Shown one piece after another: positions 3,816 to 10,032 of a stretch of DNA of 10,032 bases. Where the stretch lies: the UHGV virus genome UHGV-0102185; one strand, given 5' to 3'. The translations under genes were made by a program, and so were the position numbers. The notes below the pieces were generated by a model, which searched no databases, was not told where the DNA came from, and saw only the letters and a list, made by a program, of their open reading frames with translations. The stretch is from a virus. Within the stretch, counting starts at the first letter, position 1; every line of letters starts with the position of its first letter.

Positions 3816-4257
3816 GTTTAAGCGTTTTGAAGACCGGCTGACCGGACTGATTGAGTCGCTGTCACCGTCAGGGCGTCGGCGACTGGCGGTAGATATTGCG
3901 AAGAAACTGCGCCAGCGCCAGCAGCAGCGAATTAAATTACAAAAAGGCCCGGATGGTACGCCGTATGTACCGAGAAAAAACCAACCAGTGCGAAATAAGA
4001 AAGGCCGGATAAAGCGGGAAATGTTTGTGAAATTACGCACTAACCGGTTTATGAAAGCAACAGCTAGCGAGAGTGCGGCGGTGGTGGAGTTTACTGGTAA
4101 GGTTGAGTGTATTGCGAGAGTACATCAATTTGGGTTGGCTGATAAGCCTAGTTACAACAGTAAGGCTGTGGTTTATCCTGTTCGTATACTTATGGGAATC
4201 TCAGAGCGTGATACGAAATTTGTTGAAGAAGTTATTATTCGCTACCTATCTCATTAG
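3808..4257 (+). CDS. S: Tail completion protein, P2 gpS-like, with an AT-richer and probably divergent 3' portion
   Basis: 149 aa (MNEFKRFEDRLTGLIESLSPSGRRRL...VHQFGL...); the N-terminal third is GC-rich like the backbone, while from about 3950 onward composition and codon choice become AT-rich. Confidence 0.85.
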   Translation: MNEFKRFEDRLTGLIESLSPSGRRRLAVDIAKKLRQRQQQRIKLQKGPDGTPYVPRKNQPVRNKKGRIKREMFVKLRTNRFMKATASESAAVVEFTGKVECIARVHQFGLADKPSYNSKAVVYPVRILMGISERDTKFVEEVIIRYLSH

Positions 4258-4302
4258 GGACGATGAAAATATAGTTTCATCAGCTATATTCTAGTATATA
4301 AA

Positions 4303-4337
4303 ATACTAAGGCTACACTAGCCGTGTAGCCTTAGTAT
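4303..4337. terminator. Perfect hairpin (15-bp stem, 5-nt loop) between convergent genes; candidate bidirectional intrinsic terminator
   Basis: ATACTAAGGCTACAC (4303-4317), loop TAGCC, GTGTAGCCTTAGTAT (4323-4337) are exact reverse complements. Lies between the S stop (4257) and the minus-strand gene's stop (4358), in AT-rich flanks, but without a clean poly-U run on either side. Confidence 0.5.
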
Positions 4338-4357
4338 ATGTTTGGGATATTATATAA

Positions 4358-5602
4358 CTAAATCCAGCGAAGGTAGAATAGTAAGTAAGGATCTCTGATG
4401 TCTAATACATCGCTTTCTTGATCCCACTCGATAATACTGCTATTTGCAGCATCGTTGGCAATAGCAGTTGAGTGCTGACATGCACTGGTTATACTAGAAC
4501 CGCTTGGGCTATCGCCATGACATAACGAGGTCACTCGAGATACTAAGTCAGAATAACGAAATGTCAGCGTCGGAGGATTAGAAGCAATGGCTTTTAATAA
4601 AAAGACATAAACATCGCCTTGCCAGCCATCTTTTGATATATATGATTTTCTATCAGAACCACGCACTTTAGGTCCTTCGCGCATTTTATCCACAATCGTG
4701 CTGTAATCTGCTGACTGAAGTGTACGTTTGCACACTCTTTGCAATGTGGCAATATCTTTTTGATATTTTATTGAAGTATCAGAAGTCTCTCTGACATTCA
4801 TTTCAAAACAAGAGTTTAAGCATAAATATTGCATTAGTTGTGGTGAGCCTGCGGACTCTTTTACTAACTCACTTATAACTTCATCAGAGGCATCTATATT
4901 GAGTAGTTTGAATCCTTTCTGAGCAATAATTTTTAAGGTTGATTCATCCCAATAATCAAAATCAATATTAAATATCCGACCTCGTAAGTCAGAGTTACCC
5001 CGAAGAACATCATCAGAATGATATGGCACTGATGCACAAATAAATTTGCAGCCATTAGCTATGGCATCTTTTATTTGTCGTGATAGTTCGGCTTGAGCTT
5101 CTTTAGCAATATAGTGAAAATCATCGATAAAGATAACATAATCTGTGTTTGCGATTTCTCGCTTCATTAGTTGAAAGAGATCTATCGCAAATGATTCTGA
5201 GGTTTGATCTGCTGTACTATAACCAGCGGATGCAGACCCTTTAAGACTACCTTTTGCTAAAATTACACCAGCTTGGGCAGATAATTCTCCTGTACTTGAA
5301 AATGATGAGGTGCCAGTTTTACTTTGAACTTGGGTTACTGGTACACCAAGTATGTCGAAAACGCGCTTCCATAAATCATTAGCAGATTGAACCCCTGCTC
5401 CAGTTACTTCGATTAGCCTCTGGGTTCCAAGTACTTTCTTAACAAAGACAGTTTTTCCTGATTTTGATGGGCCAGAGATAGAAATCAGCATGGTGCCCAT
5501 CTCAAGTGTATCGATTAACTGTTGCTGTTTAGATACTAGGTGATCCTCAACCAGTGTGTGGTTGGGATAACCGCCTGGGATAAAAACCTCTGTCGCCTTC
5601 AT
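4358..5602 (-). CDS. Compact STAND/AAA_16-like P-loop NTPase of unknown function; candidate phage-encoded defence or exclusion protein
   Basis: 414-aa minus-strand ORF in the AT-rich block. Walker A GPSKSGKT (nt 5450-5473), Walker B VIFIDDFH of the hhhhDD type (DD at nt 5120-5125), a possible sensor-1-like KFICASV, and a GSP motif (ESAGSPQLMQYL) about 90 aa further on. A Ser/Thr/Gly-rich insert (about aa 94-135) sits between Walker A and B. No canonical Shine-Dalgarno before the ATG. Confidence 0.7.
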   Translation of the reverse strand: MKATEVFIPGGYPNHTLVEDHLVSKQQQLIDTLEMGTMLISISGPSKSGKTVFVKKVLGTQRLIEVTGAGVQSANDLWKRVFDILGVPVTQVQSKTGTSSFSSTGELSAQAGVILAKGSLKGSASAGYSTADQTSESFAIDLFQLMKREIANTDYVIFIDDFHYIAKEAQAELSRQIKDAIANGCKFICASVPYHSDDVLRGNSDLRGRIFNIDFDYWDESTLKIIAQKGFKLLNIDASDEVISELVKESAGSPQLMQYLCLNSCFEMNVRETSDTSIKYQKDIATLQRVCKRTLQSADYSTIVDKMREGPKVRGSDRKSYISKDGWQGDVYVFLLKAIASNPPTLTFRYSDLVSRVTSLCHGDSPSGSSITSACQHSTAIANDAANSSIIEWDQESDVLDIRDPYLLFYLRWI

Positions 5603-5643
5603 ATATCAACGCCAACATTATTAATGGTATGCCAATTTTACGT

Positions 5644-5661
5644 TGTAAGAGGATCAATACA
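5644..5661 (+). promoter_or_regulatory. TGT-N12-ACA element upstream of V; possible Ogr-type late-activator site (speculative)
   Basis: TGT (5644-5646), 12 nt, ACA (5659-5661), centred about 56 nt upstream of the V start codon. P2 late promoters carry such a partial dyad centred near -55 of the transcription start, so the spacing is not ideal and a chance match is plausible. Confidence 0.2.
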
Positions 5662-5708
5662 AGTTCCATTTATTGCCTGTGAGTGCTGAAAAATTCAATA
5701 TTTGAAAA

Positions 5709-6344
5709 ATGAATATAAATCACTCATTACAAGAGCTTGCGCGTGCACTGCGCAACATGATCCGCACCGGTATTATCGTCGAAACCGACCTTAACGCCGG
5801 TCGCTGCCGTGTGCAGACCGGCGGCATGTGCACCGACTGGCTTCAGTGGCTGACCCATCGTGCCGGACGTTCGCGCACATGGTGGGCACCTTCCGTGGGG
5901 GAACAGGTGCTGATTCTGGCTGTGGGCGGTGAACTCGACACGGCGTTCGTTCTGCCGGGGATTTATTCCGGCGATAACCCCGCGCCGTCTGCGTCGGCGG
6001 ATGCCCTGCATATCCGTTTCCCTGACGGGGCGGTGATTGAGTATGAACCTGAAACCAGTGCACTGACGGTAAGCGGAATTAAAACGGCCAGCGTGACGGC
6101 TTCTGATTCTGTTACTGCCACGGTGCCGGTGGTCATGGTGAAAGCATCAACCCGCGTCACCCTGGACACACCGGAGGTGGTCTGCACCAACAGGCTGATT
6201 ACCGGCACGCTGGAAGTGCAGAAGGGCGGGACGATGCGCGGCAACATTGAACACACCGGCGGTGAACTCTCATCAAACGGTAAGGTACTGCATACCCATA
6301 AACACCCCGGCGACAGTGGCGGCACAACAGGGGGACCTCTATGA
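5709..6344 (+). CDS. V: Baseplate spike/assembly protein, P2 gpV-like
   Basis: 211 aa (…LQELARALRNMIRTGIIVETDLNAGRCRVQTGGMCTDWLQWLTHRAGRSRTWWAPSVGEQV…), matching P2 gpV in length and sequence as I recall it; the first few codons are AT-rich. Confidence 0.9.
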   Translation: MNINHSLQELARALRNMIRTGIIVETDLNAGRCRVQTGGMCTDWLQWLTHRAGRSRTWWAPSVGEQVLILAVGGELDTAFVLPGIYSGDNPAPSASADALHIRFPDGAVIEYEPETSALTVSGIKTASVTASDSVTATVPVVMVKASTRVTLDTPEVVCTNRLITGTLEVQKGGTMRGNIEHTGGELSSNGKVLHTHKHPGDSGGTTGGPL

Positions 6345-6692: not shown

Positions 6693-7601
6693 ATGCCGAT
6701 TATCGACCTGAACCAGCTACCCGCACCGGATGTGGTCGAGGAGCTGGACTTTGAAACCATTCTTGCCGAACGCAAGGCGACACTGATTTCCCTTTACCCG
6801 GAAGACCAGCAGGAGGCGGTCGCCCGTACCCTGACGCTGGAATCCGAGCCTCTCGTCAAACTGCTGGAGGAAAATGCTTATCGTGAGCTTATCTGGCGTC
6901 AGCGTGTGAATGAGGCCGCACGGGCGGTGATGCTGGCCTGTGCTGCCGGTAATGACCTTGATGTGATTGGTGCCAATTACAACACCACACGCCTGATTAT
7001 CACCCCGGCAGATGATTCAACCATCCCGCCGACACCGGCCGTGATGGAATCTGACACCGATTATCGTCTGCGTATTCAGCAGGCGTTTGAAGGTTTAAGC
7101 GTCGCCGGGTCGGTGGGTGCCTATCAGTATCATGGCCGCAGTGCCGACGGGCGTGTCGCGGATATCTCTGTCACCAGTCCGTCTCCGGCCTGCGTCACCA
7201 TCTCTGTGCTGTCACGTGAAAATAACGGTGTCGCATCCGAAGACCTGCTGGCGGTGGTGCGTAACGCCCTTAATGGCGAGGACGTCAGGCCGGTGGCCGA
7301 CCGCGTGACCGTGCAGTCTGCCGCCATCGTTGAATACCAGATAAACGCCACGCTTTACCTTTACCCTGGTCCCGAAAGCGAACCCATACGCGCTGCCGCC
7401 GTGAAAAAACTGGAAGCGTACATCACGGCACAGCACCGGCTGGGGCGCGACATCCGTCTGTCTGCCATTTATGCCGCTTTGCATGTGGAAGGCGTGCAGC
7501 GTGTCGAACTGGCTGCACCACTGGCCGACATCGTGCTCAACAATACGCAGGCGTCTTTCTGTACCGAATACAGCGTCGTGACCGGAGGCTCGGATGAGTG
7601 A
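6693..7601 (+). CDS. J: Baseplate assembly protein, P2 gpJ-like
   Basis: 302 aa (MPIIDLNQLPAPDVVEELDFETILAERKATLISLYPEDQQEAVARTLTLESEP...); size and synteny match gpJ. Confidence 0.9.
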   Translation: MPIIDLNQLPAPDVVEELDFETILAERKATLISLYPEDQQEAVARTLTLESEPLVKLLEENAYRELIWRQRVNEAARAVMLACAAGNDLDVIGANYNTTRLIITPADDSTIPPTPAVMESDTDYRLRIQQAFEGLSVAGSVGAYQYHGRSADGRVADISVTSPSPACVTISVLSRENNGVASEDLLAVVRNALNGEDVRPVADRVTVQSAAIVEYQINATLYLYPGPESEPIRAAAVKKLEAYITAQHRLGRDIRLSAIYAALHVEGVQRVELAAPLADIVLNNTQASFCTEYSVVTGGSDE

Positions 7602-8124
7602 TTCGCGACTGCTGCCGACCGGCTCATCACCGCTTGAAGTCGCTGCCGCGAAAGCCTGTGCGGAAATTGAAAAAACGCCGGTCAGTATTCGTGAGTTGTG
7701 GAACCCGGACACCTGCCCGGCAAATCTGCTGCCGTGGCTGGCGTGGGCGTTTTCGGTCGACAGGTGGGATGAAAAGTGGCCGGAAGCGACAAAACGCGCC
7801 GTTATCCGCGATGCCTATTTCATCCACTGTCATAAAGGCACTATAGGCGCAATCCGACGCGTGGTGGAGCCGCTCGGCTATCTCATCAACGTGACGGAGT
7901 GGTGGGAAAACAGTGACCCGCCCGGCACCTTCCGGCTTGATATTGGTGTACTGGAAAGCGGTATCACAGAGGCAATGTATCAGGAAATGGAACGGCTGAT
8001 TGCTGATGCCAAACCTGCAAGCCGCCACCTTATCGGCCTGAACATTACCCGGGACATTCCCGGCTACCTGTTCGCCGGTGGTGTGGCTTACGACGGCGAT
8101 GTAATTACGGTTTACCCCGGATAA
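7594..8124 (+). CDS. I: Baseplate protein, P2 gpI-like
   Basis: 176 aa (MSDSRLLPTGSSPLEVAAAKACAEIEKTPVSIRELWNPDTCPANLLPWLAWAFSVDRWDE...); overlaps the J 3' end by 8 nt; size and synteny match gpI. Confidence 0.9.
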   Translation: MSDSRLLPTGSSPLEVAAAKACAEIEKTPVSIRELWNPDTCPANLLPWLAWAFSVDRWDEKWPEATKRAVIRDAYFIHCHKGTIGAIRRVVEPLGYLINVTEWWENSDPPGTFRLDIGVLESGITEAMYQEMERLIADAKPASRHLIGLNITRDIPGYLFAGGVAYDGDVITVYPG

Positions 8125-8134
8125 GTGAGGTATA

Positions 8135-9982
8135 ATGAGCACAAAATTCAAAACCGTTATCACCACTGCCGGTGCAGCAAAGCTGGCAGCGGCAACCGCG
8201 CCGGGAGGGCGGAAGGTCAACATTACCACGATGGCCGTCGGGGATGGCGGTGGTAAATTGCCTGTCCCGGATGCCGGACAGACCGGACTTATCCATGAAG
8301 TCTGGCGACATGCGCTGAACAAAATCAGCCAGGACAAACGAAACAGTAATTATATTATCGCAGAGCTGGTTATTCCGCCGGAGGTGGGCGGTTTCTGGAT
8401 GCGTGAGCTTGGCCTGTACGATGATGCGGGAACATTAATTGCCGTGGCGAACATGGCCGAAAGTTATAAGCCTGCCCTTGCCGAAGGCTCAGGGCGTTCG
8501 CAGACCTGCCGCATGGTCATCATCGTCAGCAGTGTGGCCTCAGTGGCGCTGACCATTGACACCACAACGGTGATGGCGACGCAGGATTACGTTGATGACA
8601 AAATTGCAGAGCACGAACAGTCACGACGTCACCCGGACGCCTCGCTGACCGCAAAAGGTTTTACTCAGTTAAGCAGTGCGACCAACAGCACGTCTGAAAC
8701 ACTGGCCGCAACGCCGAAAGCGGTAAAGGCCGCTTATGATCTTGCTAACGGGAAATATACCGCGCAGGATGCCACCACAGCGCGAAAAGGCCTTGTCCAG
8801 CTCAGTAGCGCCACCAACAGTGATTCTGAAACGCAGGCCGCAACACCAAAAGCGGTGAAGTCTGCCTATGACAATGCTGAAAAACGTCTTCAGAAAGATC
8901 AGAACGGTGCGGATATTCCTGATAAAGGACGCTTCCTGAGTAACATTAATGTTTACAGCAAAGGTGAAGTGGATAAGAAAAAGGGAATGCGAAAGTATTC
9001 GTTTGCAGCCCCTGCAAATGTCGTTGCCGGGAAGTGGTATCCCGTTATCTTTCGCCGTGCTGCCAGCCTTTCAGGAGAAATGGCATCCCGCGTCGTTATT
9101 TCCACTGGTTGTTATAACAGCGATTATGTAATGAATAACTGCGAGTTTAATGGCATGGTTATGCCCGGAGGCTGGACTGATCGTGGTTCATATGCGGCAG
9201 GTTATTTCTGGACGTATCAGACTAATGAGCGTTCAATCCATTCCATTGTTACAAGCCTGAAAGATGATGATGTATGTAGTGTTTTTTATGTTGAAGCCAG
9301 AGCTTTCCCTGTGCAAATTCTTGCAGAGGAAGGGCTAACGGTTATTGTTCCGACAGAGGATTATGTCGTCGGTCAAACGACATATAAGTGGGGGGCAACT
9401 AATCCTGCTACAGAAAGCACGAACGCACAGGCTATTCTGGATTTTAAAAATGGGCGCGGTTATTACTGCTCACATCCATTTATTTCCAGCCTTTCGGGAA
9501 ATGCTGCAACAGCAACGAAGTTAGCGAACGCAAGAAATATTAATGGTGTCAGATTTGATGGCTCTGCTGATATAAATATTAATACACTGGTATCCAGAAA
9601 CCGTGTTACTGCATTAGGTGGGAGCGTAAAGGGGACACCAGGTATTCAGATGTATGAGGCATACAACAATGGCTACCCAACAGCCTATGGTAATGTGCTT
9701 CATCTCACTGGCGTAACCGCAGTAGGAGAGGGTGAGTTACTTATTGGCTGGAGTGGAACCAGCGGTGCTCATGCTCCGGCATATATTCGCTCCCGACGAG
9801 ATACCACAGATGCTAACTGGTCTGGATGGGCGCAACTATATACAACTGCTCATAAACCCTCAGCGGGAGATGTTGGTGCATACACCAAAGCTGAATCAGA
9901 TTCACGTTATGTGAGAGACATGCGGCTGGGCGGTGCATCTACATATAAACCAGCAAATAATGGTACTACATGGACGCGGTGA
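8135..9982 (+). CDS. H: Tail fibre protein, P2 gpH-like, with a divergent C-terminal region
   Basis: 615 aa; N-terminus (MSTKFKTVITTAGAAKLAAATAPGGRKVNITTMAVGDGGG...) typical of P2-family fibres; GTGAGG at 8125-8130 upstream; two fibre-repeat copies; composition becomes AT-richer from about 8900. Confidence 0.9.
   Translation: MSTKFKTVITTAGAAKLAAATAPGGRKVNITTMAVGDGGGKLPVPDAGQTGLIHEVWRHALNKISQDKRNSNYIIAELVIPPEVGGFWMRELGLYDDAGTLIAVANMAESYKPALAEGSGRSQTCRMVIIVSSVASVALTIDTTTVMATQDYVDDKIAEHEQSRRHPDASLTAKGFTQLSSATNSTSETLAATPKAVKAAYDLANGKYTAQDATTARKGLVQLSSATNSDSETQAATPKAVKSAYDNAEKRLQKDQNGADIPDKGRFLSNINVYSKGEVDKKKGMRKYSFAAPANVVAGKWYPVIFRRAASLSGEMASRVVISTGCYNSDYVMNNCEFNGMVMPGGWTDRGSYAAGYFWTYQTNERSIHSIVTSLKDDDVCSVFYVEARAFPVQILAEEGLTVIVPTEDYVVGQTTYKWGATNPATESTNAQAILDFKNGRGYYCSHPFISSLSGNAATATKLANARNINGVRFDGSADININTLVSRNRVTALGGSVKGTPGIQMYEAYNNGYPTAYGNVLHLTGVTAVGEGELLIGWSGTSGAHAPAYIRSRRDTTDANWSGWAQLYTTAHKPSAGDVGAYTKAESDSRYVRDMRLGGASTYKPANNGTTWTR
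8654..8740 (+). repeat. Intragenic tail-fibre repeat, copy 1 (KGFTQLSSATNSTSETLAATPKAVKAAYD)
   Basis: 29-aa motif repeated 44 aa further on with roughly 80% amino-acid identity; resembles the conserved phage tail-fibre repeat seen in P2 H and lambdoid side fibres. Confidence 0.7.
8786..8872 (+). repeat. Intragenic tail-fibre repeat, copy 2 (KGLVQLSSATNSDSETQAATPKAVKSAYD)
   Basis: Second copy of the same motif inside H, in frame. Confidence 0.7.
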
Positions 9983-10032
9983 TGCTGCCAACTTACTGAT
10001 TTAGTGTATGATGGTGTTTTTGAGGTGCTCCA

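Follow-up and report, generated by a model that had tools for sequence, protein, structure and literature searches.

The mosaic organization of tail fibres in P2, P1, Mu and the lambdoid phages has long been known, from the early fibre comparisons onwards. Among the described systems, P2 gpH (NP_046775.1, 669 aa) and the fibres of P1 and Mu are among the closest to the gene presented here. P2 gpH is encoded after genes V-W-J-I, contains a PF12571 domain and two PF03406 repeats, and shows in addition a Gp34_trimer match. The host-range region of P2 H is located in the C-terminal part and depends on its cognate chaperone, and chimeric fibres have been supplied together with the matching one (PMC9942202). 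In phage Mu, the Tfa protein stays attached to the fibre tip (PMC10579305).

The investigated gene lies at the 3' end of the window, which is the whole stretch of DNA that was analysed (UHGV virus genome UHGV-0102185; 10,032 nt). It resembles P2 H in its place after V-W-J-I and in its PF12571 and two PF03406 matches, but the Gp34_trimer match is absent. It shares a distal block with P1 S' and Mu S/S' (PDB 8ju3, 5yvq), and in its intact relatives a Tfa-type chaperone gene follows, as in these phages. In contrast, the N-terminal two thirds of H are unrelated to the P1 and Mu fibres and the window copy is devoid of the tip; the likeness concerns the distal module only. The region is very probably gene H, coding for the tail fibre and receptor-binding protein of a P2-like prophage of E. 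coli, in an inactivated form that has been truncated by IS1 and in which the loss of two repeats is possibly an artefact.

Results

Position and N-terminal part of the gene

The open reading frame of 615 aa was found in the window at 8135..9982 (+), exactly where the preliminary description had placed it. It is preceded by ORFs of 211, 115, 302 and 176 aa, whose Pfam families match those of P2 V, W, J and I, and the order of these genes is that of the P2 late operon. The features assigned in this part of the window are given below; KSC207 and KW21 are prophages of the E. coli strains of these names, and R1, R2 and R4 are repeats of KSC207 H.

7594..8124 (+): gene I; the fibre module has its left boundary within ~150 nt of the start of this gene (mismatch map, three-way alignment with KW21 and KSC207)
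8135..9977 (+): H remnant of a P2-like (Peduovirus) prophage, codons 1-614 and the first base of codon 615
8135..8587 (+): tail-collar fibre domain at the N-terminus, aa 1-151 (PF12571 matched over the whole profile, E=1.9e-58)
8653..8746 (+): core of fibre repeat copy 1, 44-aa unit 8642-8773 (PF03406; 100% identical to KSC207 R1)
8785..8878 (+): core of fibre repeat copy 2, unit 8774-8905, a hybrid of R2 (5' part) and R4 (3' part)
8786..8817 (+): junction interval of the putative 264-nt (two-repeat) deletion, 32 nt identical in R2 and R4
8860..8929 (+): end of homology to P2-type H genes and zone of the GC drop (megablast, GC change point)
8885..9562 (+): middle module, aa 251-476, beta-rich, common to side fibres of unrelated coliphages
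9488..9958 (+): module at the distal end, aa 452-608, akin to the ends of the P1 Sv' and Mu S' fibres (sequence comparison)
9978..10032 (+): left terminal 55 nt of IS1, 55/55 nt identical to IS1 left ends

The PF12571 match over aa 1-151 places the protein among the tail fibres of the P2 gpH type, and this domain presumably anchors the fibre to the baseplate. The N-terminus of ~170 aa that had been regarded as canonical P2 H is indeed P2-like, but it extends further than was supposed: P2 gpH and the window H share 94% amino acid identity over residues 1-251. At the DNA level, the identity to P2 amounts to 96% and ends at window position 8860. Past residue 251 no significant similarity to P2 gpH was detected, except for the 11-residue motif DSRYV(R/K)D(M/V)RLG. 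By descent, the gene is a member of the P2 gpH type, represented here by a disrupted copy.

Closest intact relatives

The closest intact relative is the H gene of the P2-like prophage of E. coli KSC207, which encodes 749 aa (WP_087530543.1); full-length copies of this H type are listed for about 30 complete E. coli genomes. When an in-frame deletion of 264 nt is allowed for, the window H differs from KSC207 H by one mismatch (at 8287) in 1843 nt. Both genes consist of the same modules, show the same GC step and are flanked by gene I. However, KSC207 H has four repeats, an intact tip of 47 residues and gene G downstream, whereas the window has two repeats and IS1. In KSC207 the tail fibre assembly gene G (175 aa) starts 3 nt after H, and its product is 75% identical to P2 G and 96% to the G protein of phage 9W.

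The similarity to P1 Sv' suggested an invertible segment as a reason for the sudden loss of homology. This reading was rejected, as the end is IS1 and the intact relatives are without an invertase. Neither an invertase nor an inverted fibre end of the Mu G or P1 C type was found in KSC207, MSI001 and 9W; the order in all three is H-G, a hypothetical gene and the sheath gene, with no recombinase.

Fibre repeats

The duplicated fibre repeat that had been proposed at 8654-8740 and 8786-8872 corresponds to two cores at 8653-8746 and 8785-8878, which are 73% identical over 94 nt, lie 132 nt (44 codons) apart in the same frame, and coincide with two matches to the phage tail fibre repeat PF03406 (E=3e-41). 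Tandem Repeats Finder reported no array in the window because the two units are too diverged. The second unit begins like R2 of KSC207 and continues as R4, with 98.5% identity to R4. The deletion junction may be placed anywhere in 8786-8817 (repeat offsets 12-44), with one mismatch left in the whole gene versus KSC207, and the 32-mer of this interval is the longest exact internal repeat of the four-repeat region. P2 has two PF03406 repeats, 9W and KSC207 have four, and the spans in the complete genomes listed with this H type correspond to three, four or five units, the two-unit copy occurring in none of them. Therefore, the copy number varies naturally.

Compositional step and distal modules

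A GC profile along H and a domain-wise alignment had been proposed in the preliminary description, and both were carried out. The maximum likelihood change point of the GC content was located at 8867, with 0.556 to its left and 0.455 to its right, and a likelihood ratio as high as that of this step was reached in 2 of 1000 codon shuffles. The GC content of third codon positions decreases from 0.61 (aa 1-169) to 0.38, 0.36 and 0.27 in three distal segments, while the six further phage genes for which it was determined (M, L, V, W, J and I) range from 0.62 to 0.72. The AT-richer region with different codon usage, reported to start at about 8900, was thus recovered. Megablast matches of different Peduovirus H genes end at window positions 8860, 8872 or 8929, and this end of DNA homology coincides with the GC step.

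The alignment resolved modules with different relatives: P2 at the N-terminus, phages 9g and Kati in the middle, and P1 Sv' and Mu at the distal end. Residues 250-476 share about 57% identity with the side fibres of the siphophages 9g and Kati; identities of 30-40% were obtained with lateral or distal fibres from further phages, among them T4-like phages of Aeromonas. The middle module (aa 251-476) is possibly involved in carbohydrate binding. The residues 452-608 are 69% identical to Sv' of the P1 invertible C segment and match the Gifsy-2 and Fels-1 side fibres too. Within this distal module, the block 9545-9829 diverges from phage 9W; both 9W and Peduovirus P22H4 have the same H design with another block at window aa ~470-560. 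The tip of the intact relative, including the 47 residues missing in the window, can be aligned to the C-termini of the solved fibres Mu S' (8ju3) and Mu S (5yvq); the intact relative was used for the alignment to 8ju3.

The proposal of a horizontally exchanged receptor-binding domain holds insofar as H is modular in relation to P2 and its distal part is AT-richer, but the mosaic is not particular to the window. The distal part is identical base for base to prophages in many genomes and therefore does not result from a recent exchange. The AT-rich distal two thirds represent an old module exchange common to many prophages. Uniform identity to a single known H without a compositional step had been named as evidence against mosaicism; such identity was nearly found with KSC207, and the compositional step is real.

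IS1 at the end of the gene

The source contig (ENA ERZ1745065 NODE_2473, 16,732 nt), which was assembled with metaSPAdes from a short-read metagenome at a coverage of 5.9x, has the same last base as the window, 55 nt inside IS1. These terminal 55 nt, GGTGATGCTGCCAACTTACTGATTTAGTGTATGATGGTGTTTTTGAGGTGCTCCA, occur with 100% identity in more than 5000 plasmids, and in an annotated example the match stops 1 nt before a CDS named "IS1-like element IS1A family transposase". Therefore, the window ends with the left end of IS1, in the orientation of H. The terminal inverted repeat of IS1 was found at the end of the element. The last H base, at window position 9977, is joined to the IS1 start GGTGATGCTGCC, where the intact gene would read on as ATCAGGCTCCGCC...; IS1 completes codon 615 (CGG, Arg) with two bases and provides the TGA stop (9980-9982) from within its inverted repeat. 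Compared with the relative, H is lost after codon 702, which corresponds to 47 codons, i.e. the C-terminal tip. An IS1A insertion that yields an ORF ending in the 5' part of the element was described previously for another gene (PMC13622650). The sequence (C)ATGGACGC at the H::IS1 junction is a candidate 8-9 bp target site.

These results change the interpretation of the gene length. The ORF is shorter than P2 H, for which ~669 aa had been stated and which indeed comprises 669 aa, but it does not constitute a shorter fibre: it is short because IS1 removes 47 codons and provides the stop, and because two repeats of 44 aa are absent. Gene G, which was supposed to be cut off by the window end, is not represented in the window at all, since 9978-10032 is IS1. 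The complete tip followed by G, which belongs to the P2 gpH type, is thus missing here, with 47 codons lost and IS1 present instead of G. The far side of IS1 was sought with the exact G protein of the closest relative, and this search returned only long isolate contigs with an intact H-G pair.

The same junction in other E. coli and metagenomes

A protein search revealed products of 703 aa that end with ...TTWTR and correspond to the four-repeat gene cut at the same residue. They were found in E. coli GCA_033342895.1 and GCA_902827505.1 and in three ENA metagenomes. The identical 45-nt H::IS1 junction occurs in these two isolate assemblies and in these three metagenomes:

GCA_033342895.1 (5.3-Mb contig; L012, L017): E. 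coli isolate
GCA_902827505.1 (L013): E. coli isolate
L014-L016: ENA metagenomes, the contigs of which likewise stop inside IS1

L012 has the whole IS1 at this junction (768 bp, with a 232-aa InsAB product), and over window 8818-10032 the comparison with L012 gave 0 mismatches, IS1 end included. The carriers of the 703-aa allele resemble the window in a junction that is the same to the base, with ...TTWTR followed by the stop. They differ from it in having four repeats and another prophage backbone upstream, and there is no cargo gene between S and V, where the window has one (4358-5602); in one carrier an IS21-family insertion is located in the lysis region. The junction was found in none of the complete RefSeq E. 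coli genomes, in which the best matches stop at the last H base, and an exact search of species-representative genomes (one genome per species) gave none either. IS1 has little target specificity. Since the junction is shared to the base by elements of this kind, it is most likely a single event that was inherited by all carriers.

Left boundary of the fibre module

The window is 100% identical to the E. coli KW21 prophage over 4000-6000. In KW21, gene I is longer and the fibre cassette, which includes a recombinase and two chaperone genes, is of an entirely different type; KW21 diverges sharply from the window after about 7885. Conversely, KSC207 and L012 differ from the window by 2-8% upstream of ~7609, whereas beyond about 7609 the window and the KSC207/L012 type are identical. 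The position of these boundaries indicates that the C-terminal part of I and the N-terminus of H travel together. Judging from these alignments, the C-terminal part of I together with the "conserved" N-terminus of H is one of several alternative modules.

Resistance region beyond the junction

In L012, the first IS1 is followed by DNA of the tet(B) region and not by the remainder of H or by G. The order in L012/L017, followed on JAWPEQ010000001.1 as far as position 3,650,207, is IS1, tet(B)-tetR, a second inverted IS1, catA1, an acetyltransferase, tnpA/tnpR of the Tn3 family, of which the transposase comprises 988 aa and is accompanied by the resolvase, and an integron-type integrase. The 6 kb after the H stop in L012/L017, which start inside IS1, are 100% identical to IncF-type plasmids of E. 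coli and Shigella, in three pieces. We take this layout to be a Tn10 remnant plus Tn9/Tn2670/Tn21.

Discussion

The intact fibre of this type would dock on the baseplate through its P2-type N-terminus, followed by a shaft of 44-aa repeats, the beta-rich middle module and an end similar to that of P1 S' and Mu S'. In the intact relatives the distal end is succeeded by the assembly chaperone gene G. In the window copy, IS1 was inserted after 9977, which removed the conserved tip (47 codons) and added an Arg codon and TGA, and two of the four repeats may have been lost through a crossover in the 32 nt common to repeats 2 and 4, unless this loss is an artefact. A fibre deprived of its tip and uncoupled from G would form no working trimer and bind no receptor, and the prophage would be adsorption-defective. 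It is probable, as far as can be deduced from the nucleotide sequence, that such a prophage does not produce infectious particles of its own. The short length of H reflects damage and not a new kind of fibre, and its mosaic architecture is already known.

The position of the contig end deserves attention, as the length of IS1 present in the window, exactly 55 nt, equals the largest k that metaSPAdes uses by default, and the coverage is as low as 5.9x. An assembly-graph artefact, i.e. a k-mer overlap or chimeric join that leaves H intact in the organism, is nevertheless highly improbable. H and IS1 have no common sequence at the join, and a de Bruijn graph would presumably need reads spanning it; the break falls exactly on the first base of the IS1 inverted repeat; and the same 45 nt across the join recur in two isolates, in one of them on a 5.3-Mb contig with the whole IS1, and in three independent metagenomes processed by another assembler. 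A stop 55 nt into a multicopy element is the expected output of a de Bruijn assembler with k=55. Even less credible is the notion that the 615-aa ORF encodes a complete mosaic fibre, short by nature, whose receptor-binding domain was newly exchanged, with G located just past the window. It is true that the N-terminus, repeats and GC step were all confirmed and that fibre lengths do vary (relatives of 705 and 749 aa, P2 H of 669 aa, and genome spans that imply three to five repeats). However, the last 55 nt, stop codon included, are part of IS1, the full-length homologues are 47 residues longer and possess a conserved tip, which can be aligned to the structures of Mu S and S', no G sequence occurs in the window, and the distal part is too widely shared, base for base, among the prophages of many genomes for the exchange to be recent.

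Truncation by IS1 remains the preferred explanation of the gene end, and two further questions concern the assembly of the DNA upstream of it. The contig might be a chimera of two co-resident P2-like prophages, KW21-like up to about 7600 and carrying a KSC207/L012-like I-H::IS1 part behind it. The complete identity to KW21 at 4000-6000 in spite of an entirely different KW21 fibre module fits this possibility, as does the segment 7609-10032, which has essentially the sequence of L012 and KSC207, although these two depart from the window by 2-8% upstream. Such a chimera is unlikely, though, in view of the region 7100-7750, where the window has its own mix of variants, including unique bases, and no sharp switch; moreover, recombination among P2-like prophages is normal in this region, and L014, itself a carrier of the junction, differs upstream as well. 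The two-repeat state is a more delicate matter. All five other carriers of the H::IS1 junction have four repeats, so that two repeats are unique to the window contig, and no two-repeat copy was seen among the complete E. coli genomes listed with this H type. The join sits in the 32-nt longest exact repeat, which is ambiguous at k=21 and not at k=33 or 55, and in a short-read assembly with 5.9x coverage a collapse of the four-repeat gene at this site, with no biological deletion, is therefore a serious possibility, although we lean slightly away from it. The repeat number varies naturally (three, four and five copies in complete genomes, two in P2), the 32-nt identity is also the best substrate for true slipped or unequal recombination, and the join is clean and in frame.

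In annotations, the 615-aa product is best marked as a pseudogene disrupted by IS1 rather than as a novel short variant of the fibre, and the prophage as one that is probably incapable of forming infectious particles. More generally, where an ORF ends within a few bases of the end of a short-read metagenome contig, the stop codon may come from a repeat element, and the tandem-repeat copy number in such contigs is not trustworthy without the reads. The results have no bearing on open questions of phage biology, as fibre mosaicism has long been described.

As no H sequence follows the first IS1 in L012, the event at the junction may have involved a composite element or a deletion rather than a simple insertion. 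By analogy with the isolate, a resistance region of the Tn10-remnant/Tn2670-like kind would also follow IS1 in the organism from which the window is derived. A literature search for a resistance island in a tail fibre gene of P2-like phages returned nothing relevant. We slightly favour the view that the junction marks one ancestral move of an R100-type, IS1-bounded multidrug-resistance region (tet(B), catA1, Tn21, integron) out of a plasmid and into a P2-like prophage, within the gene for its tail fibre, that the resulting island circulates in gut E. coli, and that the window represents a carrier which later lost two repeats. If this were true, the H::IS1 junction would provide a cheap metagenomic marker for the lineage or the island. 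Anyone wishing to track a chromosomal resistance island has a modest lead in the association of the junction with a tet(B)/catA1/Tn21-type region in isolates. It is mildly notable in itself that in isolates the junction borders a resistance region derived from plasmids.

Variation in the tail fibre gene and its surroundings

The tail fibre gene H carries a 132-nt (44-aa) shaft repeat, the number of which differs among related prophages. Among the matches listed for complete E. coli genomes, the 1843-nt H query gave matched spans of 1975, 2107 or 2239 nt, which correspond to three, four and five copies of the repeat, respectively. Among prophages with the H type of the window, the repeat number of the shaft is therefore a natural copy-number polymorphism.

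The switch between backbone types falls within gene I, directly upstream of H (window 7594-7900). From approximately 7609 on, the window is identical to the type represented by E. coli KSC207 and by L012, a GCA_033342895.1 locus, and the E. coli KW21 prophage diverges strongly from it past approximately 7885. This pattern points to exchange of the C-terminal end of I as one piece with the N-terminus of H. Although the KW21 prophage (NZ_CP117672.1) shows 100% identity to window 4000-6000, its fibre cassette is very unlike that of the window and is of the invertible-segment type:

L011 10095-14059 (NZ_CP117672.1), KW21 fibre cassette: longer I gene, 392-aa fibre, two assembly genes in opposite orientations, second fibre end, recombinase

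Insertion sequences and contig ends

Window position 10032 is the end of the ENA contig NODE_2473 (L006 11898) and lies exactly 55 nt into IS1. The same H::IS1 junction is present in three other metagenome contigs, which end 47-112 nt past the H stop codon. Where ORFs end so near a contig edge, repeat-derived stop codons are worth checking.

The prophage of E. coli GCA_033342895.1, which shares this junction, is struck by several insertion sequences. An IS21-family element with IstA- and IstB-like genes was observed in its locus L017 (2750-5052), between the holin gene and a LysA-like gene; no lysozyme-sized gene was called in L017 around this element.

Cargo ORF between tail genes S and V

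A low-GC ORF separates tail genes S and V, in the place occupied in P2 by the non-essential orf30:

window 4358-5602, - strand, 414-aa ORF

Its GC content is 0.39, compared with 0.58 for the phage backbone. In PADLOC, the product was assigned to PDC-S59, a candidate defence family (E=2.8e-31); its matches to AAA/P-loop Pfam models were weak. The insert was found in no phage records, the matches being to E. coli genomes instead; 12 complete genomes carry the same S-V insert, where it is labelled 'ATP-binding protein'.
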